From the UHGV virus genome UHGV-0020835: DNA of 64,000 nt. One strand, written 5' to 3'. The stretch's first letter is position 1, and each line of letters opens with the position of its first letter. Both the position numbers and the translations under genes were made by a program. The DNA is from a virus. This document shows, in pieces, positions 31,708 to 48,418 of this stretch. The notes beneath the pieces were generated by a model. That model was not told where the DNA came from. It did no database searches and was given only the letters and a program-made list of their open reading frames with translations.

Positions 31708-32580
31708 TTAACCCCCTGTATAGTCATAGTGGATTGTGGCGTTGGTGGCTCCCCAAGGAGCATCTGGGATTAAATTTTCAGACCAAGACACATAAATATC
31801 AGTTAAATTAGTACACCCCTCAAAAGCATTTGCGGCTATGGAAAGATATATCGCATCAGTAAGACTTAAATAAACCGTCTTTAAAGCCGTGCAAGATTTA
31901 AAACATTCTGATTCTATGTACAACATGTCTGATAAAGCTACTAAAGAAAACGTTTGTAAACTTGTACAGTATTCAAAAGCATTTGACTTAATTCTACCCA
32001 ATTTATTTGGTTTAAAAGTTATTTCTTTTAATCCTTTGCATTTTGAAAAAGCGTACTCGCCAATAGTCTTTACATTATCTTGTGAAAAATCTAAAGGAGG
32101 AAGAACCGTGCATCCTTCAAAAGCCCGCGACCCAATCTTTGTAATTGGTTCTGTCCAAGAAACAGAGGCTAATGCTGAACAATTCAAAAATAAGCCAGGT
32201 CTAATTTGTTTACCCACTGAACCGACTATTTCAGCAGAAATCAATTGATTGTTCTTGTACGTTTCTTTAATATAGGGCTCCGGAACAGAAGGAACAGAAG
32301 GGACATTAACAGTAATAGGACTATACGCCGTTCCCTCTGGAGCCGTTGTAACACCATTTTCAACAATTGTAATAGGTTCTATATTAACGCTACTTCCACC
32401 GGTTCCGGCTTTTTTAATCCAAGTTTTATTAGTTTTGTCAAATACATAAACTCTGCCAGTATCAATTTCTGTGAATTTTGAGCCGTTTTCTACGTTAATA
32501 GGTTTAGTGTCAATAGAGCGGCCAGCAAATGTTGAAATCTTGGGGTTGTTATATCCAGAAGGTCGAACTTGTGTTATCAT
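31708..32580 (-). CDS. leucine-rich-repeat (BspA-type) surface protein
   Basis: Repeated xAFxxCxxLxxIxLPxxxxxIGxxAF units typical of BspA-like LRRs. Confidence 0.5.
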   Translation of the reverse strand: MITQVRPSGYNNPKISTFAGRSIDTKPINVENGSKFTEIDTGRVYVFDKTNKTWIKKAGTGGSSVNIEPITIVENGVTTAPEGTAYSPITVNVPSVPSVPEPYIKETYKNNQLISAEIVGSVGKQIRPGLFLNCSALASVSWTEPITKIGSRAFEGCTVLPPLDFSQDNVKTIGEYAFSKCKGLKEITFKPNKLGRIKSNAFEYCTSLQTFSLVALSDMLYIESECFKSCTALKTVYLSLTDAIYLSIAANAFEGCTNLTDIYVSWSENLIPDAPWGATNATIHYDYTGG

Positions 32581-33043: not shown

Positions 33044-33292
33044 TTACTCCTTTGCCTGAAAAGCCCGATCAAACTCACGGCACATATCAGAATATTCCTG
33101 AGTGCCTTGAGCAGGAATTTTATTTTGCAGAGAAATATAAGACACCTCATCTGCACCAGAATAATGGGGTAGATCGGGATGGCCAGCATTACGAATATTG
33201 GCAAGGAACATACGTGCTGCAACATCCCAAGATACATTCTGCTTGTTAGCAATGGCAATAATTTCCTTCTTGTACTCAATAAGTTTAAACAT
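33044..33292 (-). CDS. hypothetical protein
   Basis: 82-aa ORF between the XkdX-like gene and the holin. Confidence 0.35.
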   Translation of the reverse strand: MFKLIEYKKEIIAIANKQNVSWDVAARMFLANIRNAGHPDLPHYSGADEVSYISLQNKIPAQGTQEYSDMCREFDRAFQAKE

Positions 33293-33405
33293 TATTTTTC
33301 CTCCTTTAGGATATTATCATATTCTTCTTTTGTTAGCTTCTTTGCTTTGTACAAAGCATCAATCCTTTCTTTGCTCCAAAGATAAGGATAATATTTTTTG
33401 GCCAT
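33292..33405 (-). CDS. XkdX-like small protein (about 37 aa)
   Basis: MAKKYYPYLWSKERIDALYKAKKLTKEEYDNILKEEK shows the XkdX-type KxxLTxEEYxxI pattern. Its TAATG overlaps the next gene. Below the ORF-track cut-off. Confidence 0.35.
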   Translation of the reverse strand: MAKKYYPYLWSKERIDALYKAKKLTKEEYDNILKEEK

Positions 33406-33416
33406 TTCATAAACCG

Positions 33417-33701
33417 TCAAGATAACTCAACCCCAGTCATTACAGATAAATAATCAACATCTGCGCGTAATTTTTCTTCTTCTGTAGGCACGGGAATGTA
33501 GGTGGATTCAGGGACTTCTTTGGCGGTTAATTCAATAACTTTTCCTTGCTTATTTAATACAATATCAACAAAAGGATAAGATTCAGGAATAACCACCCCA
33601 GAAGGGATTTCTACCCAACCTTCAGGAATATCCATATGGTCATCAAAAGACAAATTGTTGTGAGCGCCGTTTTCTAGCGCTTTTAGTTCAATAATTCTCA
33701 T
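33417..33701 (-). CDS. XkdW-like protein, homolog of the 40456..40764 ORF
   Basis: MRIIELKALENGAHNN...EGWVEIP...TEEEKLRADVDYL aligns with MTIIEKTARPDGGHG...EEWAEVP...TEEEDTNALLVDHEY. Confidence 0.4.
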   Translation of the reverse strand: MRIIELKALENGAHNNLSFDDHMDIPEGWVEIPSGVVIPESYPFVDIVLNKQGKVIELTAKEVPESTYIPVPTEEEKLRADVDYLSVMTGVELS

Positions 33702-34714
33702 TTTATAGCGCTCCTATCCGTACCTATTCCCCAATAATAGTAAGTTGTGTTGACCAAATTATATTTTGAACCATGGACAGGGTCTAAAGTTAATGTCACA
33801 TAATTTTGCGTTCCATTATAATAGGCTGACCATATAGTTTTAAGTGTTGTAGAACCCGAAGTATAAACCACTGGAGTAGTGCCCCACGGGATAAAAAATA
33901 CAACAGAACGGTTAGAATTAGTTTCACCACCATAAATAATTCCATAAATAATGGGCTTAAAAGGGAAATACAAATTTTTAATTACCGAGCCCGTGCCTTC
34001 GTACTTTCCAATAAAAATCTTTTTGCTCTCTAATGCGTTATCATTGGGCACCCCAAGATATACATATTCTATATCATTGACAATTTGATTTTTAGGATAG
34101 GCATTAAAATTGGACGAATAAACATATTCCCATTCACCAAGCGCTCTTTTCGCCGACACTCGATCACCAGAAAAAGTAATAAAATAATTACTTCCGGGTG
34201 AAGCATCAGAAGTATCAGACCCAGTTGCGGTGGTTACTTTGGCCACAAAGGGGTTTTCAGTAGCTGTATGAACACTTGTATCAACTTTTACAGCATTGCA
34301 CTTTACATAATAGTCAGCCGCAGCGTTTAAAGAAGTATAATTTGAAGCAGAAACATTAATCGTACCAACCACATCTTTAAGTGCCCAAGTATTTGTCGGT
34401 TCGTCATAAGTATAGCCCGATGCGTATTGGATGGTACTCACCGATCCAGACGAACTCCCCGTATACAGATAAAGTTTTGGATATGAATTTTCTGTTATTT
34501 CTAAAACATTGCTTCTTTTTTTCCAACAATATAAATAATTCTTACTCAATACTTCCAACGCATCGCCGACACTTGTCTTACTCGTCCCCGCGCCAAAGAA
34601 ATTTTCTGCGGTAGTTTGATTCATTTTAACCTGAGCATCGTTGGTAATGGGATATAAAATATCATAATCTGTACCATTAAACTGTTTCATCAAAATATTT
34701 TTATCAATTGCCAT
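33698..34714 (-). CDS. putative tail fibre / distal tail protein
   Basis: 338-aa Thr/Ser/Tyr-rich beta protein upstream of the chaperone-like pair. Confidence 0.35.
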   Translation of the reverse strand: MAIDKNILMKQFNGTDYDILYPITNDAQVKMNQTTAENFFGAGTSKTSVGDALEVLSKNYLYCWKKRSNVLEITENSYPKLYLYTGSSSGSVSTIQYASGYTYDEPTNTWALKDVVGTINVSASNYTSLNAAADYYVKCNAVKVDTSVHTATENPFVAKVTTATGSDTSDASPGSNYFITFSGDRVSAKRALGEWEYVYSSNFNAYPKNQIVNDIEYVYLGVPNDNALESKKIFIGKYEGTGSVIKNLYFPFKPIIYGIIYGGETNSNRSVVFFIPWGTTPVVYTSGSTTLKTIWSAYYNGTQNYVTLTLDPVHGSKYNLVNTTYYYWGIGTDRSAIK

Positions 34715-37463: not shown

Positions 37464-38372
37464 TCACCTCTTCGTAGGGATTAGGCCATTTTCATATAGG
37501 TCGTTTTTATCATTGGGATCGCCAATTTCTGTCCATTCGGCACTAACCTTAACCATGCCTTGACCATAGTTATTAGCATAACTCAGACTAGGATTGCCAG
37601 TAAAATAGACCAGCCAATTATTACCATTCATATCTTTAATAATTTTTGGCTTTTTATTTGTTAAGAAATTAAGCAAAGATTCTTTTTCTTTCGTAATAGC
37701 ATATCTATCAACCAATCTGTCTTTTTCAAAGTTCTTAGGTAGCACCCATCCCCCAATAGAGCCAGATTTATATTGCATGACGCTATTGCTTACTACAACA
37801 GGATATTTCCTGTTATAAGGCTGAAATACGCCAATCTGTTGATTAACAGTGTTGTTATTATATTCTACGTCAGCCATAAACTTAAACACCGTGTTTATAT
37901 CACAAATAAACACGCCTTCAAATTTGGACAAAATAGATTCAATAATATAACTGCCTTCAACATCCCCCAGCATAGGCACAAAAGCATACTCGTATTCAAC
38001 GCCATATGCGTTTAAATTATCGGTGATTACAAAAGATAAATCTTCTGTGGTATTGACAGGGACTTCTTTAATTGTTATCCAATCAAAGGTTCCTTTTATA
38101 CGCCGTTTTACACGAATACTGGTAATATCTTTCCACATTTGCTCAACGTTACCAGCTAACACATTGCCATTGAAATTGGCACCCATAATAGTGTCTAAAT
38201 CCCATTCAGTAGGCTGAATAGAGTTATAATCAAATATTACATTTTTTGTTACATTAAAATGGTCAAAAATGCCATTTTGTAATTTAGTGTTTACAATCTT
38301 ATTGATACCTGTTGGCGTTGGGTCAGCCGAGTTGCCATCACCACAAAGGTTATATCCAATAAACCCAATCAA
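37464..38372 (-). CDS. putative baseplate protein
   Basis: 302 aa, translationally coupled. Confidence 0.35.
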   Translation of the reverse strand: MIGFIGYNLCGDGNSADPTPTGINKIVNTKLQNGIFDHFNVTKNVIFDYNSIQPTEWDLDTIMGANFNGNVLAGNVEQMWKDITSIRVKRRIKGTFDWITIKEVPVNTTEDLSFVITDNLNAYGVEYEYAFVPMLGDVEGSYIIESILSKFEGVFICDINTVFKFMADVEYNNNTVNQQIGVFQPYNRKYPVVVSNSVMQYKSGSIGGWVLPKNFEKDRLVDRYAITKEKESLLNFLTNKKPKIIKDMNGNNWLVYFTGNPSLSYANNYGQGMVKVSAEWTEIGDPNDKNDLYENGLIPTKR

Positions 38373-39448
38373 ACCTCAACACCTCGATTCTCAATCTTTA
38401 ATTCATACACATTATTTATTCGTCTTAACCAGCAAAACAATTGTTCTGTACTATCAGGCAGAGCAATGTGTTGAGACTCTATTACATACCCCCAAAGATT
38501 CCTTTCATGAACAGCCCTCATTTCAAACCAACAACTTTCATCTTTAGCGCAATATGTAATAATAATAGTATCACCATTGACATTGCTAAACCTAAAAATT
38601 TCTTTGTTAGGCGTGTAATCTCGCCCCCAAATACGTGTAGTAAAGTCGCCATCTATTTCATACCCTTGTGTCCATTGAACATATTGTCCTTCTCCTCTTA
38701 TATCAATTTCTTTATTATCAATATAGGTGGGCGAAGGAGGATTTGTTTCGCCATCAATAGCGATAACGTTTGAAACAATAGTAATATATCCGCCTTGGCA
38801 ATTGTTGGACAAAAACAAAGAGCTAAAAGCATCAGGGGCAATGTAGTTCGTGGTAAAGCCAATTCGCCCCGTAGTAATTTGTGTGCCGTTTGTAGTAACA
38901 CCAGTTACTTCAACACTGTAACTAGCCTTATCCTCAAATCCGCTAAATAAATAACTAATATTCAATGGTAAGGTAGTATCAGTATTATACATTGTGCCAG
39001 ACGTGCTAATTAAAGTGCCTGAAATACTATAAAGATTAAATACATAAGCATTAAGTGTTTCGCCTTGAATCTGATTATATTGCACATTAAAAGCAAAGCT
39101 ACTATTGGTCACCACATTGCCAGTCGGCATATTACTAATAACAAACGTAGGCTGACTATAACAATAGAACTGAATGGGGTTGGACGGGCTGGATTCATTG
39201 CCCTGTGCATCTTTAGTGGTCAAAGTGGCCTGATAATATGTGCCGTTGGTTAACGTATTGGCAGGTAGCGTATGCTCAAACCGATAGGTTGTCTGAGTCT
39301 GAGAGTACACAGTGGTCAAAGTTACGTTGTCTTTAATTGTTAGGGTATTTGCTACAACTTGCGGGCCACTAATTGACGCAAATGTAAACACCATAGAGTT
39401 TTGCGCATCAAAAGCTGGAATGGAATATAAAATAGGAGTTGTCAACAT
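38369..39448 (-). CDS. putative distal tail / baseplate protein
   Basis: 359-aa Thr/Asn-rich ORF. Confidence 0.35.
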   Translation of the reverse strand: MLTTPILYSIPAFDAQNSMVFTFASISGPQVVANTLTIKDNVTLTTVYSQTQTTYRFEHTLPANTLTNGTYYQATLTTKDAQGNESSPSNPIQFYCYSQPTFVISNMPTGNVVTNSSFAFNVQYNQIQGETLNAYVFNLYSISGTLISTSGTMYNTDTTLPLNISYLFSGFEDKASYSVEVTGVTTNGTQITTGRIGFTTNYIAPDAFSSLFLSNNCQGGYITIVSNVIAIDGETNPPSPTYIDNKEIDIRGEGQYVQWTQGYEIDGDFTTRIWGRDYTPNKEIFRFSNVNGDTIIITYCAKDESCWFEMRAVHERNLWGYVIESQHIALPDSTEQLFCWLRRINNVYELKIENRGVEV

Positions 39449-40215
39449 AAACGCAAAGCCTCCTCTATGATTTTTTCTATATGTTGTTTTTCATAATACC
39501 AAATTTCTAAGAGATCTATGTTATGATTTTTAGCCCATTCTTTTTTTATCTCATCTCGTATTTTTTGGCTTTCCCATTGCTCTTTAGTTTGCACACCATT
39601 TGGGTTCTTTTTATAAGGAATACCATCGTGGAATTCCCCCTGATATTCTATTAAAAGATTATGTTTTAATAAATAAAAATCAAAAAACATAAAATTATCT
39701 TTATCACTTTTCAAATCTTCAAATGTTTTTTGACGAATAAAAGGAATGTTATGTTTACTTAAAATTTCAGCTATTTTTTGTTCCCCAAGTGAATTATTAA
39801 CGCAATTGCATTTGGGTAAATTAGGATTATGAATTGACCGATGAGTAAAATTACTCCAATCACTAACAATAGTCTTGCCATCAATGAACTTAACTGTTAT
39901 ACCGTGAGAATGAGCGTTACGATATTCGATAATTTCACATTCCATGCCACAATTCATAACTGCTTTTAAACCTTCTCGTCTGGTTTTACAGTTTAAACTA
40001 CGTGCTTTACTACAATTGTTTAACTTAGGCACAGTTGGACACTGTATTTCCCCATGGAGAAACTCATAATAACTCTTATGGCAATTAACACTACCGTCTG
40101 GAAATTGTACAGTAATATCATGTGTATTGAAATACTCAATTATAGTGCCCTCTACGCCACAATTCATACGTTTAACAGCACCTAAACGTTCATTACGTTT
40201 AGATTGTTTAGCCAT
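39442..40215 (-). CDS. putative PD-(D/E)xK-type homing endonuclease with tandem N-terminal DNA-binding repeats
   Basis: Two copies of NCGxEGxIIEYxNxHxITVxFxDG. The C-terminal FDFYLLKHNLLIEYQGEFHDG resembles the DUF559/Vsr-like D...E-x-K(Q) nuclease core. Free-standing, at the border of the GC-rich island. Confidence 0.4.
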   Translation of the reverse strand: MAKQSKRNERLGAVKRMNCGVEGTIIEYFNTHDITVQFPDGSVNCHKSYYEFLHGEIQCPTVPKLNNCSKARSLNCKTRREGLKAVMNCGMECEIIEYRNAHSHGITVKFIDGKTIVSDWSNFTHRSIHNPNLPKCNCVNNSLGEQKIAEILSKHNIPFIRQKTFEDLKSDKDNFMFFDFYLLKHNLLIEYQGEFHDGIPYKKNPNGVQTKEQWESQKIRDEIKKEWAKNHNIDLLEIWYYEKQHIEKIIEEALRLC

Positions 40216-40313
40216 TTATTCACTCCTTTCTACCAACACCGTCGCGATAACGATGATTTCCTTCCTTTCTTTTGTGTGGGTGGTTTATTCTATGCGGCTT
40301 GTCCGCTGTGGGG

Positions 40314-40454
40314 TTACTGAGCGTCCAGCAGGGCGGTCAGCTCTGTGTACTGGGCCTCGGTGAGCTTACCGGCGGCGTAGAACACGTCCAGTTTCTCAGC
40401 AAGGCCCTCTGTCTGGCCCCGCTCGATCATGCGCTTGAGTACCCGATAGAGCAT
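40314..40454 (-). CDS. XkdX-like small protein (46 aa), GC-rich copy
   Basis: MLYRVLKRMIERGQTEGLAEKLDVFYAAGKLTEAQYTELTALLDAQ with a strong GGGGAGGTG RBS. Not in the ORF track. Confidence 0.4.
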   Translation of the reverse strand: MLYRVLKRMIERGQTEGLAEKLDVFYAAGKLTEAQYTELTALLDAQ

Positions 40455-40455
40455 T

Positions 40456-40764
40456 TCAGTTCACCTCCCCGTTCACACCCAGCTCCAGGAGCGTCAGGCG
40501 GTATTCGTGGTCTACCAGCAGGGCATTGGTGTCTTCCTCTTCTGTGGGGACAGCGGGAGAGACGGGCCGCTCAATGGGGGCAACGCCCGTCAGCCTGTCC
40601 CCCTCAAAGGCGAGGTCACAGTACCCGCAGCACGCCCACACGGCGGATTCAAGATGTGCGGGAACCTCTGCCCATTCCTCGCCCATCCAGTTCTCTGTGC
40701 GATGGCTCTGGCTTTGCAGCCCGTGCCCTCCGTCAGGCCGTGCCGTTTTTTCGATGATGGTCAA
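40456..40764 (-). CDS. XkdW-like protein, GC-rich copy
   Basis: 102-aa ORF with an AGGAGGGA RBS. Homologous to the 33417..33701 ORF. Confidence 0.4.
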   Translation of the reverse strand: MTIIEKTARPDGGHGLQSQSHRTENWMGEEWAEVPAHLESAVWACCGYCDLAFEGDRLTGVAPIERPVSPAVPTEEEDTNALLVDHEYRLTLLELGVNGEVN

Positions 40765-40776
40765 TTTCTGTCCCTC

Positions 40777-43700
40777 CTATCTGAATGCGATGTAGAATCG
40801 GACAAGGCCTCTGTCGTTGATGCGGTTATAGCCGTTTCCACTGATTTTGTGGACAGCGAAGCCGGTTTCCGTCAGCTCCAGCACCGGCGCGCCGCCGCTG
40901 GTGACCGGCTTGCCGGGCAGGGCAAGACCGCCGTGGATGACGGGCCACGAGCCGGTCTGATAGCCCGTCATGGCGTCGGAGCTCACCACCAGCACCGCCC
41001 TTGGCTGGAACCCCAGGTCGATGTTCTGGGTCTCCGCGTCGTCGCCGGTGTAGCTGCCGGTCACCGTAGCTACCCGCTGATAATCCCACCACGGGAATGC
41101 AGACAATACACCGTCCTGCGGAACGTATCCCTGTACTCCGTCGCTTGTGATGTTCGTGCCAACGGCCAGCCCAGAAGTCTCAGCCACTCCCGCAAAGAGA
41201 ACATCGCAGTTTTGCCCAGCGGAAGCGGAAGTAAGAGCGATTGCGTCTTTGGATGAGATTACCCATCTTCCCGCAATCTGCCCGTTGTTGAATTCAAGCG
41301 TTGTAGCATAATAATTATTTGAATAGTTCCCGAAAAGAAACACACGTTTATTATCCAGCTGAGTACCAAATACAGGGTATCCACTGCTGAACACCGCAAC
41401 ATCCATTTGTGTGCCTAGCGAAGCTGCTAGATTATCAATCTGAATTGGAAACACACTTGAAGAGAAGGCGATCAGCATCTCCCCGTTAAATGTAAATACT
41501 GCTGTGGAATGACTAGGCACAGATGCAAGCAACTGTGTTTTTGTCCCGGCTGAAATCGCGTTACCAGAGATAGTACAAGCATACCCATAGAAGATATCGC
41601 TGTTGATATACCCAACAAAGACATCCGTGCCGTTCACGCAGCAAAACGGCGTACAGCTGACCGATTCCAGCAACTGAGTTGCACCGAAAGATGCAGTTCC
41701 TGCCTCATCCACATTTACGATAGCGCAAAATAGTTTGCCCGCCGAATTTGTAGCGGCAACAAAAACTTTTTTGCCGGAGATAAGTTGTGCATCTAAAGTA
41801 CTGATATTGTAACTGCCAATATTCGAATCTGGTATGAGATTCTGAATTGTTCCCGGCGTAATTGTCGTTCCGGAAATGGAAAGATGTTGTACAGGAAGAC
41901 CACCCACGTTGTATAGGCCAAACACGACAAGAACACTTGTATTAGAAAAACGGATCAGCTTTACCTTGTCGTACTTACTTGAGCTTCCCCCAACGTTAAG
42001 TTGAACCTTTGCCCCCGGAGTAATTGTTGTTCCAGATATAGTACAGACCCAAGCAAAGTCTCCTTGATTAGAACGGGCTACAACAACAAACCTTAAGCTG
42101 TCCAATGCCACGATCCCGAAGGGTTGTGTGGCGTAGGAGGTGTCGCTGAATTCCTGGGTTGCAATAATAGACACTGGCTTTATGCTGTCGGTTACACGGA
42201 ACAGGGTAATTGTATAGTAGCCTGTAGACCTGTCTATCGACATAGTTACGCCTGTTTCTGCGCTCAACATACACGAAAGCATTGTATAACCATTAAGCAA
42301 CGTCGGTTCCACATTTTCCGCTCTAACTTTCTTCACAAGCTCCCCGTCCACCACATCCACCACGTCACCCACGGCGATGCTCTGGCCCGCTGCTGCGGGG
42401 TAGGTGCCACGGACGGCCTTACTGCGGTCTTTGAGGCCGTTGTCCACGTAGCTTTTCGGTGCCGCGTCGGTGTCAGCCTCCGGCGTGGGGAGATTCTGGA
42501 GCTTCTGGCCGCCCATGTCGAGATTTCCGGTCATCGTCCCGCCGGATTTGGGGAGCTTCGTGTCGGCATACGCCTTGATGCCGCCAGCCGTTGCCACGTC
42601 ACCGTTTGGATCGTATACAGATTTAAGCATATCACCAGACCCAGCCGCACTCAATGCGTCACTAACGGCTTTTTCACTCGGCACCTTGGTTGCACTTGTT
42701 CCAAGAGTTGTAGTGATATCGGATGTGGATACAGCGCCTACATCGCTTGCCCCTAATGTGACCACCCCTGTTTTGTTATTGATAGAAGTAACAGGTGCGA
42801 TCTGTAAGGCGGTATCTGCTTTGTCAAGTGATGCTTGCACATCGCCCGATAAATCGCTTTTAGCCACGCTTGACTTAAATGCCAAACTGCCAAGGTCACT
42901 AAACCACTTGGCGATTTTGCCGAATATAGTAGATAATTTTTCGCCACTTGAGATATTGGTTCGGCCTGATGCTTGGGAGAAAGTTGAAGCTGTATTGTCT
43001 ACATTGCCATATATGTGCTGCGCTCGGACTTCCTTCCACTGAGCGAGATACGTCCCCAATGACACCGCGCCGGTTTTGTATGGTGACAAGTCACCGTACA
43101 TTGTACTGCCGCCACGGTTAACTAATGTTCCTTCAATACCACCAGAAATACCCGTGAACGCAATTTGCGTTGCCGCGAGCCAACCATATTCTTGAGTAGG
43201 TTGAGCACGAAATGTTATTCGAAAACGTTTCCCAGTCCCGTTAACCTGTACCCCCATATACTGTGTGTTTACAACTTCATCGAAGGGGATATTATCCCGC
43301 TCAGCTACAAAAACGTATTGGTCAGCAACAGAATCATAAATTTCAATCTTATAATAACTACAATTTTGCTTGGCCGCGCGCCAATAAAATGACACGCCGT
43401 TTTCCCACTTTAACACCAAATTCGAATCAATCACAATAGAAACTTTAAGGTTTTTGACATCCATCAAAAGCGTATCATGGGCAGTTGATACATCTTTCCA
43501 CGCCCCGGTAGAATCACCTTCCGGTATTACACCTTGGGATCCTTTCAGTGCCTTATACCATCTAAAAACGCCGGATGCGGTTTGGTACATAACACGGGCA
43601 TTTTGCGGATAATTACTTGTTTCACTCCACAAACAAACAGTTTGTGCATGGCTTGGGCCAGCACCAAAGTTAATATATGTGCTGGATTTTCCATCAAATA

Positions 43701-44787
43701 AAGTATCAATTTCCTTGTCTGTAAAAGGCATAAGATACCCATCATAAAAAATCTGTGCGTTGCCGCCATTGTACCGGAGAAAACCCAGCGCATTTACTGC
43801 TGGGTTGATGGATACGGCATCTACATTATTGATAATACTATTAATGCCACCCCGTAAACGGACCGCTTGAATTTCATCATTAACACCCTGTTTACCATCT
43901 AATTGTGTCTGTACCTTACTTGTTACGCCACCAAGATAACCCAACTCAGCAGATGTAACCGTACTCGCCTCGACCTTGCCACTACCATTAGACACCAAAG
44001 CATGATTGGCAGTAAGATTATTGTCTGTAATGGTGCTTGCGCCACCCGTAATCGTATCTTGTTTGCCTCCGAGCGCATTAGTTAATGTAGTAACGTCACC
44101 CTTAAGTGTCGTAATATCAGACTGAGCCGTTTCCATATCAGAATCAAGCATAACAATATTATCTTTATTAGTATCAATTTGTTTCTTGGCCGAATCTGTA
44201 AAATCATTATGAGTACGCACATAAGTTTGCCCATCACTAACATCATCTTGAGTTAAAACAACTGCGCCAGTCTTGCCGTTAACTGACTTAACGGGAATAT
44301 CATTAGTAGTAATATAACCGCTGTCGTTTATAATTTCAGAGGTCTTGGTAGGAATATCTATGGTTTTTGCATAACCGCCCAAAGCATCGCTATTGACAAA
44401 ACCAGAATCGTTTTCAAGTTCACTGGTCTTTGTGGGGATTACAGTTGTGCTAGGTAAAGCGCCTACGTCATTAGCATTAAGAATAACACTACCGGTTTTG
44501 CCATTAACACTTGAAACGCCCGTTTCTGGTGTTTCTCCCCCACCCCCAGGAACAATAATAAAAGCCGCAGACATATTACCAAATGGCACAAACACTTGGT
44601 AAATAGAACCAGTAAGAGGTGTGCCGCCATAATATTTTACAGTATTATCTTTTCCGTTGATTGTCAAAACGCACGTTGAAGTAGCCACAGTTTTACACAC
44701 ACCAGAATAAATTTTGGTTGTATTATCTTCTACTACATGATTAACTATAATTTCAATGGCATCTAAAATCTCGTTAGTAATATTCAA
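40777..44787 (-). CDS. large tail fibre / host-specificity protein with GC-rich C-terminal domain
   Basis: 1336 aa with repeated TKTSE(L/I)(E/I)NDSG(F/Y) units and long beta-rich regions. TTG start with an AAAGGAGGTG RBS. The last about 170 codons (40777..41300) are markedly GC-rich. Confidence 0.5.
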   Translation of the reverse strand: MNITNEILDAIEIIVNHVVEDNTTKIYSGVCKTVATSTCVLTINGKDNTVKYYGGTPLTGSIYQVFVPFGNMSAAFIIVPGGGGETPETGVSSVNGKTGSVILNANDVGALPSTTVIPTKTSELENDSGFVNSDALGGYAKTIDIPTKTSEIINDSGYITTNDIPVKSVNGKTGAVVLTQDDVSDGQTYVRTHNDFTDSAKKQIDTNKDNIVMLDSDMETAQSDITTLKGDVTTLTNALGGKQDTITGGASTITDNNLTANHALVSNGSGKVEASTVTSAELGYLGGVTSKVQTQLDGKQGVNDEIQAVRLRGGINSIINNVDAVSINPAVNALGFLRYNGGNAQIFYDGYLMPFTDKEIDTLFDGKSSTYINFGAGPSHAQTVCLWSETSNYPQNARVMYQTASGVFRWYKALKGSQGVIPEGDSTGAWKDVSTAHDTLLMDVKNLKVSIVIDSNLVLKWENGVSFYWRAAKQNCSYYKIEIYDSVADQYVFVAERDNIPFDEVVNTQYMGVQVNGTGKRFRITFRAQPTQEYGWLAATQIAFTGISGGIEGTLVNRGGSTMYGDLSPYKTGAVSLGTYLAQWKEVRAQHIYGNVDNTASTFSQASGRTNISSGEKLSTIFGKIAKWFSDLGSLAFKSSVAKSDLSGDVQASLDKADTALQIAPVTSINNKTGVVTLGASDVGAVSTSDITTTLGTSATKVPSEKAVSDALSAAGSGDMLKSVYDPNGDVATAGGIKAYADTKLPKSGGTMTGNLDMGGQKLQNLPTPEADTDAAPKSYVDNGLKDRSKAVRGTYPAAAGQSIAVGDVVDVVDGELVKKVRAENVEPTLLNGYTMLSCMLSAETGVTMSIDRSTGYYTITLFRVTDSIKPVSIIATQEFSDTSYATQPFGIVALDSLRFVVVARSNQGDFAWVCTISGTTITPGAKVQLNVGGSSSKYDKVKLIRFSNTSVLVVFGLYNVGGLPVQHLSISGTTITPGTIQNLIPDSNIGSYNISTLDAQLISGKKVFVAATNSAGKLFCAIVNVDEAGTASFGATQLLESVSCTPFCCVNGTDVFVGYINSDIFYGYACTISGNAISAGTKTQLLASVPSHSTAVFTFNGEMLIAFSSSVFPIQIDNLAASLGTQMDVAVFSSGYPVFGTQLDNKRVFLFGNYSNNYYATTLEFNNGQIAGRWVISSKDAIALTSASAGQNCDVLFAGVAETSGLAVGTNITSDGVQGYVPQDGVLSAFPWWDYQRVATVTGSYTGDDAETQNIDLGFQPRAVLVVSSDAMTGYQTGSWPVIHGGLALPGKPVTSGGAPVLELTETGFAVHKISGNGYNRINDRGLVRFYIAFR

Positions 44788-44827
44788 TAATCAACACCTC
44801 CTTTTATTTATATAAGAGGGCGCATGA

Positions 44828-47800
44828 TTACGCCCTCTTATATGCACGTTGATAAGCAAGATTCTTTAACCCGGCCACTAAAGATTCAGCATCTCGCGCA
44901 TTAGGCAAAGACAAATTATCAATATTAAAGATTTGAGTATTACTCTTATTGCTTAACACTGTAGGATCAATCTTGCCCCAATTCCACAAGTTTCTTGTAA
45001 CATCGGCGGGAATAATACTGTCTCCATTACCAAGAACTCTTAACTCAGGCCCCTGCTCACCAACAAGACTCAATCCACCAGTTGCGCCTAATGTACCATC
45101 CGCATGCCCTGTTAATTTCTTAATAACAGAAGTAATACCAGAAATAACGGCGCTGACAGCAGATTTGGAGCCGGAGTCAGAGGACGAACCGCCCTTAGAT
45201 GCGCTAACTGTTGGTGTCTTTGGGATGTATTGACTACCATCGGCACCGCCACTATAACCGTACTTATTTCTAATGGCTTCTGCCCTTTGGTGAGCCTCTA
45301 TTCGCTCTTCATCAGTTTTAGCGTTAGCAAAATCTTGCTTGGCCCGTTGAATTTCAGCTAAATCATATCCGCTAATACCACTACTAGCGCCCTTATATCC
45401 ACCACCGGCTTCGCCAGCCGTAGGCACCATATTCCCGACAGCAGTAATTTCAGACATAATACCGGTATACTCATTAGCAAATTTTTTGGCTTGGCCTAAC
45501 CGAATGGCCCAATTATCGCCTTCCAGCTTAATGCCGAGCGCCTGTTCAGCAAGCAATCTATTCTGCTCTCTAGTGTATTGCTGAGTTACATCGGCCCATT
45601 CCTCTCTATATTTCTGCCACCAATCAATTTGCGTCTGAATGTTTTCAACTGCCTCGTCTTTTAAAGCCTCAAGACGCTTAGTTTCTTCTTCAAGCGCCTT
45701 TTCGCGGTTATAAGAATCAAGTTCGCTTTGCGCCTCAGCAATAGCCTCTACATCCTGTACATACTGGAATTGACCATCTTTAAACACATAGAGCTTTTTA
45801 CTCTTGGCCTTGGCTAAATTGTCTAATAATTGCTGATACTTAATCTGGTCTTCAAGTAGGCCGTTTTCTTCGTTTAGTTTATCAATTTCATCTTGCCATT
45901 TTTGTTCTTCTTCGGTTTTTTGCTTTTCAAGAGCCTCAAGCCGTTCATCGATACGGTCAACCATATAACTAGATGCGGCTTCATAAGCGTCTTTGCGCTC
46001 ATTAAGAGCTTTTTCCCAAGCCTCTTTCGCCTCTTCTGCGGCTTTCTTTTCTTCTTCGGCTTGCTTTTCGGCGGCTTCTTTCGCCCTTTTCTCTATCTCA
46101 TCATAGATTTTATCTATGTCATTTTGATAATCCCACCAAAGAATCTTTAGTTGGCGCACTTGCTCAGAATCTTCAGAAAGCCCCAGCGCACGATATTTAT
46201 TGGCTGTGGCATGAATGGCCTCTTGAATCTTTTTCATTTGGGATACTTGCTCTTCTTCAGTCGCACCAGACTTTTCTAGCAATTCAAGACGGTCTTTGAG
46301 GAGACTAAGTTGCTCTTTCCATGCTTCAGTTAGTTTCTCTACAGCGGTTTTTTCTTTCGTGGTGGAAGAACGAGAACCCGAAGAACCACCGCCACCCCCT
46401 GTTACAACATCGTTGTCTGTTGTAACAATGTCAGCTTCCGCTAACTTTTTTCTATAAGGTGCAAGCCAAGTATTCCACTTTATTTGCAAATACGCTTGTT
46501 CAGCTTCAGCCTGAGACATACCACTATTCATCAATTGACGATAAGTGGGATCATTCACCAAGCCACCATTTGAAATTCCGGCGAGGGCACCTTGAACACC
46601 AAAAGCCATTTCAGCCACTTGCGCCAATGCCGCCACTTTTTGAGAAACATCAAAATCAGTATTATTAAAAACAATAGATTGATATATAAGATCTATCATT
46701 TTCTCTTTAGTAATACCTAATTGGCCTGCCTCATTAATCAACTGATTCGCTAAAACAGCTGCAGCAGGTGCCGTTTGTGCTTGAGCAATTCTTAAATCAA
46801 CCGTCTTTTGAGCCACTTCTTCGGTTGTGCCGACAATATCAATAAGCTGATACCAAAGATCTCTTTGAGTATCATCCATCTCAGCGCCATCAGCAACCGC
46901 TTGTTGCCCTACTGCGTGATATTCTTCAAAAGTACCGACTAGTTCATTTAATTGCTCTTTAAGTTTCTCAAACTCTTCTACACTGGTGGCCTTTTGCATC
47001 GCTTCTTTTAATTCATAGAACTTATCTATCTGTCCTTGAATAATTAAAGATTGCGTTGCCCACTCTTTACCGCCATAGCTAACAGTCGGTTGTGTCGTTG
47101 CGTTGCCAAAAGTTAAGTCGAATCTCTGTTGGTTAAATTCTGCTAGTTGCTTCTGCAAACCCTCTAATTTGTCACTGTACATATCAATGACATTTTGATT
47201 TGCGCCCTGTTCTTTGAGTTCTTGAATCTTTTGTTTGGTGCTCTCTATCTCAGCGTTAACTTCGCTAATTTTATTCTTAACATATTCTGCACCATTAAAT
47301 GTTTTTTGGAACCAGTCGGTTTTAGAAAAAGCATATAGACCAACGATAGCCGCAGAAATTGCTAAGAGAATAGGCAACACTGCCCCAGACGCTCCTTGTA
47401 AAAGTATAAACGCGTCGCTTAAAGAGTGAATACTCGTAATCAGCTTTCCCGCCGCAAACACATCTTTAAGATTTTTAAATTGCTGAACAATTGTTGAGAT
47501 AATACCAGTTGCGTGTGCCAAAGAAGTTGCTCCCCAGCCCAAGCTTGTCAACAACACAATTTGAGATACAATCGTCCCAAGAGGAGTACTAGCAATTTGC
47601 AACAACGATTTCGCAATGCTAAGTAAGCCATTAACCAAGCCACTATCAAGAACATTGTTAGCAAATTGTTGAAATTGGGAACCCAATTGAGATAAGTGCG
47701 CTTGAACGGACTCCATATAAGAAGCATTCTCGTTTAACGCAGAACCTTGTGAATTAAGCGCTGTATTGGTTGCTTCTGTTGCGTGATCAAAATTGTTCAT

Positions 47801-48418
47801 TAGCGCCAGGAAATTATTAAGCTGAGTTGTACCCGCTAGAGTAGTGGCAATATATTTTTGAGTGTTGCCGTCTAATCCATCCCATTTTTCCGCCAATTCA
47901 CCGAGCAATTCATAACTACTTCTTAACTGTTCCTCGTTATCGTACATTGAAACATTGAGGTCATCAAAAATCCGAATAATTTTTTCGCCGTTTGACGAGG
48001 CAGGATCCAAAACCTGACTAAGGTTTGCAAAAATAGCGTTAAGCCCCCGAGAGGCCTTGCTAGCATTTTTTGTTTGTTCGGTAATTGCGGTAAGCATACC
48101 AATTGTAGATTCCAGAGAATTGCCCATTGAAGACGATGTAGAAGCCACAATCTTTAAACCAGTCGCTAAATCACCTGTACCAACAGCAAAATTGTTTGCC
48201 ACAGAGTTGACCGCATCTATAATATGAGTTGCATTTGCTTCAACATCACCCGTGGTTTGATTAAATGCAATTAACTGAGAAATTAAAAATTCAGCAGAAT
48301 CGCCAGCGGAAATAGTTTCATCTGCCACATTCTGGAACATTGAGCTAACACGAGCTAGCGATGCAGCATCTTCATCGTTGAAGCCATTTTTACGGAAGTT
48401 GGTTGCCGCGTCAACCAT
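44828..48418 (-). CDS. tail tape measure protein
   Basis: 1196 aa, highly alpha-helical and coiled-coil, with a hydrophobic central segment and a Gly-rich C-terminal region. Confidence 0.7.
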   Translation of the reverse strand: MVDAATNFRKNGFNDEDAASLARVSSMFQNVADETISAGDSAEFLISQLIAFNQTTGDVEANATHIIDAVNSVANNFAVGTGDLATGLKIVASTSSSMGNSLESTIGMLTAITEQTKNASKASRGLNAIFANLSQVLDPASSNGEKIIRIFDDLNVSMYDNEEQLRSSYELLGELAEKWDGLDGNTQKYIATTLAGTTQLNNFLALMNNFDHATEATNTALNSQGSALNENASYMESVQAHLSQLGSQFQQFANNVLDSGLVNGLLSIAKSLLQIASTPLGTIVSQIVLLTSLGWGATSLAHATGIISTIVQQFKNLKDVFAAGKLITSIHSLSDAFILLQGASGAVLPILLAISAAIVGLYAFSKTDWFQKTFNGAEYVKNKISEVNAEIESTKQKIQELKEQGANQNVIDMYSDKLEGLQKQLAEFNQQRFDLTFGNATTQPTVSYGGKEWATQSLIIQGQIDKFYELKEAMQKATSVEEFEKLKEQLNELVGTFEEYHAVGQQAVADGAEMDDTQRDLWYQLIDIVGTTEEVAQKTVDLRIAQAQTAPAAAVLANQLINEAGQLGITKEKMIDLIYQSIVFNNTDFDVSQKVAALAQVAEMAFGVQGALAGISNGGLVNDPTYRQLMNSGMSQAEAEQAYLQIKWNTWLAPYRKKLAEADIVTTDNDVVTGGGGGSSGSRSSTTKEKTAVEKLTEAWKEQLSLLKDRLELLEKSGATEEEQVSQMKKIQEAIHATANKYRALGLSEDSEQVRQLKILWWDYQNDIDKIYDEIEKRAKEAAEKQAEEEKKAAEEAKEAWEKALNERKDAYEAASSYMVDRIDERLEALEKQKTEEEQKWQDEIDKLNEENGLLEDQIKYQQLLDNLAKAKSKKLYVFKDGQFQYVQDVEAIAEAQSELDSYNREKALEEETKRLEALKDEAVENIQTQIDWWQKYREEWADVTQQYTREQNRLLAEQALGIKLEGDNWAIRLGQAKKFANEYTGIMSEITAVGNMVPTAGEAGGGYKGASSGISGYDLAEIQRAKQDFANAKTDEERIEAHQRAEAIRNKYGYSGGADGSQYIPKTPTVSASKGGSSSDSGSKSAVSAVISGITSVIKKLTGHADGTLGATGGLSLVGEQGPELRVLGNGDSIIPADVTRNLWNWGKIDPTVLSNKSNTQIFNIDNLSLPNARDAESLVAGLKNLAYQRAYKRA

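Follow-up and report, generated by a model that had tools for sequence, protein, structure and literature searches.

Phages alter their host range chiefly by exchanging receptor-binding modules, and tail-fibre or receptor-binding modules have been exchanged between unrelated phages in the P2, Mu, P1, lambda and T-even mosaics and in the swaps seen among Streptococcus thermophilus and lactococcal phages. Tip adhesins and fibre chaperones can be separately encoded, as with T2-type gp38, Mu Tfa and P2 G, and phages also carry free-standing homing endonucleases, including T4 Seg and Mob, those of the SPO1 group, and Vsr-like or PD-(D/E)xK enzymes. PBSX XkdV-XkdW-XkdX and SPbeta YomR-YomQ-YomP are Bacillus subtilis tail cassettes (PMC6834076); XkdW and XkdX are of unknown function (PMC8190038). 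This study examines a tail-fibre locus in a 64,000-nucleotide (nt) stretch of the virus genome UHGV-0020835, here called the window, where a long fibre gene ends in a GC-rich island that also holds two small genes and is followed by a homing-type endonuclease gene. The analysis suggests that the GC-rich island is likely to be part of a modular, horizontally exchanged distal tail-fibre cassette and that the endonuclease gene is a separate element. All genes discussed are on the minus strand, as are all genes between 29 and 64 kb of the window.

The original prediction for this region described a sharp GC-rich island at 40216-41300 with the endonuclease gene abutting it. The island was borne out when profiles were recomputed: in 200-nt windows the GC content is 0.28-0.38 over 39400-40299, rises to 0.52-0.67 over 40200-41199 and is down to 0.40-0.44 by 41300. 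The best GC-rich segment in a maximum-scoring-segment test was 40294..41228, with a log-likelihood score of 98 compared to a top score of 15.2 among 50 shuffled controls. The GC content of this segment is 0.61, against a mean of 0.40 for the window, and its z value relative to all other 950-nt windows is 6.3. The island is real and covers the pre-tip and tip of the fibre (the last ~155 codons of a 1336-amino-acid (aa) protein), a 102-aa open reading frame (ORF) and a 46-aa ORF. These three ORFs and the 257-aa endonuclease ORF all exist as had been described, including the strong ribosome-binding site (RBS) of the 102-aa ORF. However, the island is best started at about 40294 rather than 40216, and the endonuclease gene does not touch it because a 98-nt intergenic spacer of ordinary GC content (40216..40313) separates that gene from the 46-aa ORF; the part of the spacer below 40257 holds the RBS first used by a tail gene of about 360 aa further downstream. 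The GC shift sits in synonymous positions, as GC content at third codon positions (GC3) reaches 0.82-0.92 across fibre codons 1226-1325, and the 102-aa and 46-aa ORFs have values of 0.72 and 0.79, respectively, compared to 0.22-0.34 in the flanking genes. A second GC3-rich patch inside the fibre gene (42339..42604; score 37.6, GC3 0.78) had been overlooked when a single island was described. A promoter and terminator scan found nothing specific at the island borders.

A phage contig with a GC content of 0.595 (L016) aligns to window positions 42486..40257 with 83.8% nt identity over 2236 nt. The transferred unit is thus not just 40216..41300, as had been proposed, since the homology takes in an AT-richer middle distal module (41245..42327, fibre aa ~821-1181, GC 0.39-0.52) that is common to L016 and swapped in close relatives of the window phage. 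Identity to L016 is 94-97% in the second GC-rich patch, termed the junction box, about 80-90% along the middle module (79% aa and about 84% nt overall), 69-74% in the tip, and 93-98% over 40611..40262, which spans the 46-aa ORF together with the end of the 102-aa ORF before it and the first 50 nt of spacer after it; homology then stops within the spacer at 40257. The GC profile along the shared stretch is nearly equal in both phages. Therefore the middle module of L016 is a low-GC trough (GC3 0.30-0.52) in a backbone with GC3 of 0.8-0.9, and in the window the tip and small ORFs of the same stretch form a GC peak. A foreign, higher-GC origin of the island, as originally proposed, is strongly supported by the GC3 contrast and by the 84-98% nt identity to L016. 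The gene order in L016 is a 954-aa fibre, a 102-aa ORF, a 46-aa ORF, an 82-aa ORF, an M15 peptidase and an r1t-type holin, and two contigs from other runs (L017 and L018) have the same downstream order.

The mosaic fibre gene (40777..44787) lies directly downstream of the tape-measure gene (44828..48418) and has PHROG tail-fibre and virion-protein matches. Its first ~80 residues form an anchor domain (residues 1-80, 44548-44787), and because this domain is a complete 79-81-aa stand-alone protein in two distant relatives (L076 532-777 and L077 5728-5967), the long fibre seems to have arisen by fusion of an extension to a small tail-tip protein. The junction box (42339..42604, ...AAPKSYVDNGLKDRSKAVRGTYPAAAGQSIAVGDVVDVV) is the left-hand boundary of the exchangeable distal module. 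It is common to the window, its close relative L001 and L016 and, more distantly, L019, an 88%-identical relative of the window phage, and it also stands at the left edge of the distal module in a second fibre locus of L019. The limits of homology fall near it, as the L001 alignment ends at 42328 and the L016 alignment begins at about 42486. Downstream of the middle module, a conserved pre-tip (41002..41175, fibre aa 1205-1262) with 91-95% aa identity in L001, L016 and L019 locus 2 divides that module from the hypervariable tip (40780..41001, fibre aa 1263-1336), which is the variable C-terminal part of a ~95-residue all-beta domain and a candidate receptor-binding domain.

Five close relatives (L001-L005) are ~94% identical to the window on both sides of this region. 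The island is kept in all five, and between 40750 and 40210 the window matches L001 at 100% identity. The last ~75 fibre codons have only 64-78% nt and 59% aa identity to the close relatives, and 42327..41245 cannot be aligned to them at all, which places the breakpoints relative to L001 at 42328 and 41244. Along the fibre, identity to L001 swings between 100% and 64-83%. The window genome and a near-identical contig, L020, differ from the close relatives only in their alleles of the tip and the middle module and in having the endonuclease insertion. The exact 102-aa protein was found on at least 8 further metagenomic contigs from independent human-gut samples. The cassette can be called acquired, then, but "recently acquired", as originally stated, holds only in a relative sense, as all close relatives have the island. 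Within the otherwise ~100%-identical fibre shaft, additional patches at 43090-43800 with 73-83% identity to L001 suggest further small mosaic segments.

The fibres of the window, L001, L016 and L019 carry the tip domain in fused form. In L021, L022 and L023 it is a separate 110-112-aa ORF, and it also forms the C-terminus of short fibre-like proteins of 125-182 aa. Tip alleles of L001 and L016 are 92% identical at the nt level, those of the window and L021 74%, and those of the window and L001 67%. The nearest allele to the window tip by nt identity among the loci compared is thus the stand-alone tip ORF of a 61%-GC phage (L021), and the closest tip protein overall (P0121, 84% identical) is a stand-alone 110-aa ORF on a short contig. 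This pairing of alleles across the GC divide suggests that exchange has been repeated and two-way. Because the tip is hypervariable between otherwise 95-100% identical genomes, it probably binds the receptor. PDB sequence searches gave nothing useful for the fibre, the 102-aa family or the endonuclease, and a megablast of 39000-45000 against GenBank phages returned no match, nor did a tblastn of the fibre end against phages. Scans with the distal fibre returned 1 weak match in IMG/VR and none in JGI metagenomes.

The 102-aa accessory gene (40456..40764) has a TTG start with AGGAGG 7 nt upstream and occupies the position of XkdW. Its product has a GGHGLQSQS-type head and a DHEYRLTLLELG-type C-terminal helix, and it matches phrog_22773, a family of unknown function, at E 2e-24 over residues 1-98. 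The AlphaFold model (pLDDT 90.5) has a beta core followed by a long C-terminal helix. The label "XkdW-like" in the original prediction stands for gene order, as the arrangement of fibre, ~100-aa gene, XkdX-type peptide gene and lysis genes is found at two loci of the window and in L016; in PBSX-like Oscillospiraceae prophages the gene order of the XkdW slot follows Baseplate_J and Gp48 genes. It does not stand for sequence or fold. The 102-aa ORF has no Pfam or NCBIfam match, Pfam XkdW (PF09636) is not matched at E<=0.1 by this ORF or its 94-aa homologue in the window, no Pfam domain was found among the 120 listed of 137 homologues of the 102-aa protein, and the model has no significant structural match to any PDB entry, solved XkdW included. 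The 46-aa peptide gene (40314..40454, termed type A) is in the position of XkdX and belongs to phrog_2310 (E 4.9e-16). Here the XkdX likeness is weak and confined to a profile match between type A and the XkdX-like type B (86% probability, E 4.7e-6) over just 24 C-terminal residues, and the 46-aa ORF does not match Pfam Phage_XkdX (PF09693) even at E<=10. Locus L032 has a peptide in this slot that reaches 32.4 bits against PF09693, for which the gathering score is 23.5 bits.

The window has a second, native fibre locus, which is AT-rich (33292..34714, GC3 0.27-0.33) and consists of a 338-aa fibre-like gene (33698..34714), a 94-aa homologue of the 102-aa gene (33417..33701) and a 42-aa XkdX-like peptide gene (33292..33420); a tail collar fibre protein is encoded upstream of it. 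The predicted kinship of the two ~100-aa proteins was confirmed from their sequences, and they are true homologues: BLASTP gives E 3e-4 with 28% aa identity, and a profile built from 64 sequences of the 102-aa family picks up the native 94-aa ORF with 99.2% hhalign probability (E 8.6e-20). This ORF also matches phrog_22773 at E 0.004. The 42-aa ORF matches PF09693 below threshold (17 bits, E 0.0064), and direct BLASTP of the 46-aa peptide against it found no match. These relationships raise the question of whether the accessory pair of the first locus is a duplication of the native pair rather than an import, as the ~100-aa genes are homologous and L019 shows exchange between loci. However, the paralogues are only 28% identical compared to 91-98% aa identity to the L016 copies, and the two loci have opposite GC3 values, which makes duplication very improbable. 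A remote kinship of the C-terminus of the native 338-aa protein with the tip (GKYEGTG...FPFKP) was considered and rejected as not significant (hhalign E 0.04, probability 1.3%). A gene at 31708-32580, just beyond the downstream end of this locus, encodes a 290-aa product with leucine-rich repeats of the BspA type (LRR_5, E 1.4e-26).

The exchange between loci in L019 is informative about where the accessory genes may recombine. Of the two fibre loci of L019 (1-1450 and 6191-8420), locus 2 has gained a 598-aa fibre whose tip is GC-rich, and its accessory gene is a chimera of a GC-type head and a native tail. At locus 1 the long fibre is cut to 184 aa and followed by the remnant tail of a GC-type accessory gene and a 46-aa ORF. 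This looks like an exchange between the two fibre loci, and the split between head and tail indicates that the two paralogous accessory genes recombined within their "PTEEE" linker. In L019 and L022, about 22 codons of the 82-aa gene persist after the 46-aa ORF, which points to import from a fibre-102-46-82-lysis context. The fibre-102-46-82 order is present in L016 and also, as 338-94-42-82, at the second locus of the window phage. The 82-aa ORF of the window (33044-33292), which has no Pfam or PHROG match, is 83-84% identical at the aa level to the ORF that follows the 46-aa ORF in L016 or the stand-alone tip ORF in L021, and is therefore another gene common to both sides of the GC divide.

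The ~100-aa family as a whole is modular: heads are of either the GGHGLQSQS or the NGAH type, and the C-terminal helices also fall into two types. Head types pair freely with either helix type. Helix type and downstream peptide type co-vary, with no exceptions among the 39 non-redundant genes for which both could be read (loci L009-L075 and the window). Because gene order is conserved beside fibre genes and before lysis genes, and because of this co-variation, we infer an accessory or assembly role for the two small proteins. In bacterial genomes, all matches to the 102-aa family (52/52) are in Oscillospiraceae or unclassified clostridial metagenome-assembled genomes, including Flavonifractor, Pseudoflavonifractor, Lawsonibacter, Intestinimonas, Evtepia, Vermiculatibacterium and other Oscillospiraceae, and the GC content of these loci, where measured, is 0.52-0.72. 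The 46-aa ORF is ~75% identical at the nt level to Faecalibacterium phages, and the 102-aa ORF has 59% aa identity to Flavonifractor phage Cormatin.

In the model favoured here, the cassette would consist, in order, of the junction box, the middle module, the conserved pre-tip, the hypervariable tip, the ~100-aa accessory gene and the ~45-aa peptide gene. The pre-tip, the tip and the two accessory genes would come from phages or prophages of high-GC Oscillospiraceae (about 57-62% GC) and would have been recombined into a siphovirus-like lineage of ~40% GC through short stretches of conserved sequence, with the junction box as the left crossover site and either the accessory-gene linker or the spacer after the peptide gene as the right one. 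Traffic would have been two-way and repeated, with the AT-richer middle module now lying as a low-GC trough in a 60%-GC phage and tip alleles being paired across the GC divide. The tip would act as the receptor-binding domain, and the two small proteins, which travel with it, would serve in fibre assembly or in another accessory role. The 257-aa gene would be an independent homing endonuclease that targets the 5' end of the next tail gene, and its later insertion would have brought about 350 nt of foreign flank on the side of the downstream gene only.

Several points weigh against this model. The best bacterial-genome homologue of the 102-aa protein is only 66% identical, and the 84-98% matches to the cassette are on uncultured metagenomic contigs. 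For both phage groups, it is prophage distribution and GC content alone that point to an Oscillospiraceae phage gene pool. The co-variation of helix and peptide could stem from tight physical linkage alone. In addition, Oscillospiraceae prophages have a sigma70_r4-like gene, and no fibre, directly upstream of the accessory gene, which weakens a fibre-chaperone reading. Of the two fibre-plus-chaperone modules originally proposed, what stands is the two loci with homologous ~100-aa and ~45-aa genes. The upstream prophage protein is 355-364 aa long, has a sigma-70 region-4-like helix-turn-helix and lies within the tail module (L013-L015 6926-8017; L009 6940-8007), and the same prophages encode a collagen-like 659-aa fibre downstream of the small peptide.

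More tentatively, the ~40% and ~60% GC phage populations may share Oscillospiraceae hosts and trade receptor-binding parts via a dedicated cassette that uses the accessory gene as a recombination joint, though we regard this extension as doubtful. If it were true, the accessory head would travel with the tip and the C-terminal helix with the ~45-aa peptide, and tip, accessory protein and peptide would form a three-part assembly complex, with the tolerated crossover points keeping its interfaces matched.

The free-standing homing-type endonuclease gene (39442..40215, 257 aa, GC3 0.22) has a clear insertion site. Compared to relatives that lack the gene, the inserted DNA is 39446..40209 (764 nt), immediately after the ATGGCT of the ~360-aa tail gene (38369..39448), and in L001-L005 the sequence is contiguous at this point. 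The endonuclease borrows the RBS and start codon of the tail gene, and its own 3' end (GAGGAGGCTTTGCGTTTATGTTGA) gives the displaced gene a new RBS and an ATG that overlaps the endonuclease stop codon. The first ~115 codons of the tail gene (39445..~39100) are divergent, with 65-73% nt identity to L001 over ~350 nt (39445-39100) followed by 94-100%, and the gene as a whole has 71.9% aa identity to every relative without the endonuclease. At this one site the endonuclease is absent from L001-L008, L019 and L022 and present in L020, L076 (74% aa) and L077 (53% aa). The gene is thus polymorphic at its site and outside any intron or intein, in line with a free-standing homing endonuclease.

The original prediction also raised the possibility that this endonuclease mobilised the cassette, which would mean cleavage beside the cassette and repair from a donor that brought in the GC-rich segment. 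Only 98 nt lie between the endonuclease gene and the 46-aa ORF, homing endonucleases co-convert flanking DNA, and a divergent flank does exist. However, that flank is on the far side (39445-39100), and the island side (40750-40210) is 100% identical to relatives without the endonuclease. Presence and absence are also uncoupled in both directions among relatives, as L001-L008 and L022/L023 have the island without the endonuclease and L076/L077 have the endonuclease without the island, with just the 79-81-aa anchor encoded by the upstream gene and no long fibre. The endonuclease occupies the same site in these island-less genomes, and therefore the two elements are independent; mobilisation of the cassette by the endonuclease is very unlikely.

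The endonuclease matches PHROG endonuclease families at E 5e-30 and 7e-22, and its homologues in Staphylococcus phages are annotated "VSR homing endonuclease", as in phage phiIPLA-RODI, or "HNH endonuclease"; an IMG/VR scan with the protein found no match. Across 50 homologues, residues D179, E190 and Q192 (FDFYL...IEYQG) show little or no variation, and Q stands at the K position. PvuRts1I-like_N, which we take to be an atypical PD-(D/E)xK domain, is matched by 4 of 20 family members (best E 4.2e-5), and the window protein itself has no Pfam match. A profile of the nuclease domain found no PDB relative, and the full-length profile found only zinc-ribbon repeats from distant homologues. The mobile, homing-type nature of this gene held up, and its PD-(D/E)xK assignment is plausible from sequence but not established. 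The N-terminal ~70-aa repeats (MNCG..TIIEY.N...ITV.F.DG) have no Pfam model, and distant homologues have CapR/DUF4379 zinc-ribbon repeats instead. The window protein has two such repeats and close relatives, among them the 94%-identical, 326-aa P0140, have three, so the window copy has lost one by in-frame deletion between MNCG motifs, which makes its activity uncertain.

With the exchanged cassette as the preferred reading, it could still be asked whether tip diversity arises in place. A diversity-generating retroelement that mutates the tip in situ would fit the way variation is packed into the last ~75 fibre codons between near-identical genomes. However, there is no template repeat of the tip within 38000-46000, all substitution classes were seen with no adenine bias, and the tip alleles match alleles of other phages at 74-92% nt identity. 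The lack of both a template repeat and an adenine bias favours allele exchange over retroelement mutagenesis, which has little credibility here. It is still less credible that the island is native and owes its GC content to a Gly/Ala/Pro-rich amino-acid composition or to local selection, as the tip is indeed Gly/Ala-rich with raised GC content at first codon positions (GC1) but GC3 is 0.72-0.92 compared to 0.22-0.34 in the neighbours, two unrelated small ORFs share the bias, and nt identity to a 60%-GC phage is 84-98%. An assembly chimera of a low-GC and a high-GC phage is equally far-fetched, for while the window is probably metagenome-derived and the related record L006 is a scaffold with a gap, the same junctions occur in L001-L008, L020, L022 and L023, which come from many independent samples and assemblers (ENA Hadza, MERR22, k141 and Logan assemblies), and reading frames are unbroken across both junctions.

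Some further observations concern the relatives and the window at large. The three-ORF fibre of L006 (748-996) was traced to a scaffold gap with Ns and does not reflect an insertion element. Across the window (1-64000), gene orientation and GC skew flip at about 29 kb, where plus-strand genes give way to structural genes on the minus strand, and no tRNA genes were found.

The large GC difference between the partners makes each exchanged piece visible and reveals two-way traffic between ~40%-GC and ~60%-GC phages in the human gut, the latter being tied to Oscillospiraceae only through prophage homologues and GC content. The analysis provides concrete module breakpoints, a candidate receptor-binding domain with no solved relative, and, for the uncharacterised phrog_22773/phrog_2310 pair, a pairing rule that can be tested. 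It further shows that the appealing idea of a homing endonuclease behind the mobility of the cassette was mistaken.

Compared to described systems, the endonuclease is the most easily placed. Like known free-standing phage homing endonucleases, it is an intergenic ORF at one polymorphic site with a GC content below that of the genome, translational coupling and a divergent flank. Unlike them, its DNA-binding part consists of 2-3 repeats of ~70 aa for which there is no Pfam model, and the same is true of its nuclease domain. The small genes compare with the PBSX and SPbeta cassettes, in which the fibre, ~100-aa and ~45-aa genes stand just before the lysis genes (PMC6834076), exactly as in L016. 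The model of the 102-aa protein also resembles the XkdW-like protein of phage Sam46 in having beta strands followed by a C-terminal helix (PMC8190038). This family differs from PBSX XkdW and XkdX in having no Pfam XkdW match and no PDB structural match, with a 46-aa ORF that has no Pfam XkdX match. The tip recalls gp38 and Tfa systems in that it is fused in some genomes and a separate 110-112-aa ORF in others, with small accessory genes following, but no sequence or fold similarity to those systems was detected.

The locus is most like the known fibre mosaics, as the distal segment and the downstream accessory genes move together by exchange at short conserved sequences, near-identical genomes have hypervariable tips and the N-terminal anchor is lineage-specific. 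It differs from them in that the partners are ~20 GC points apart, so that exchange is visible as islands in both directions, the conserved linkers are not collagen-like repeats or His-box motifs, and one crossover site is inside the accessory gene itself. Taken together, this is a clear but ordinary case of phage mosaicism in which known phenomena involve uncharacterised protein families, and what was least expected is that the partners lie 20 GC points apart and that pairing within the accessory-gene pair is so strict.

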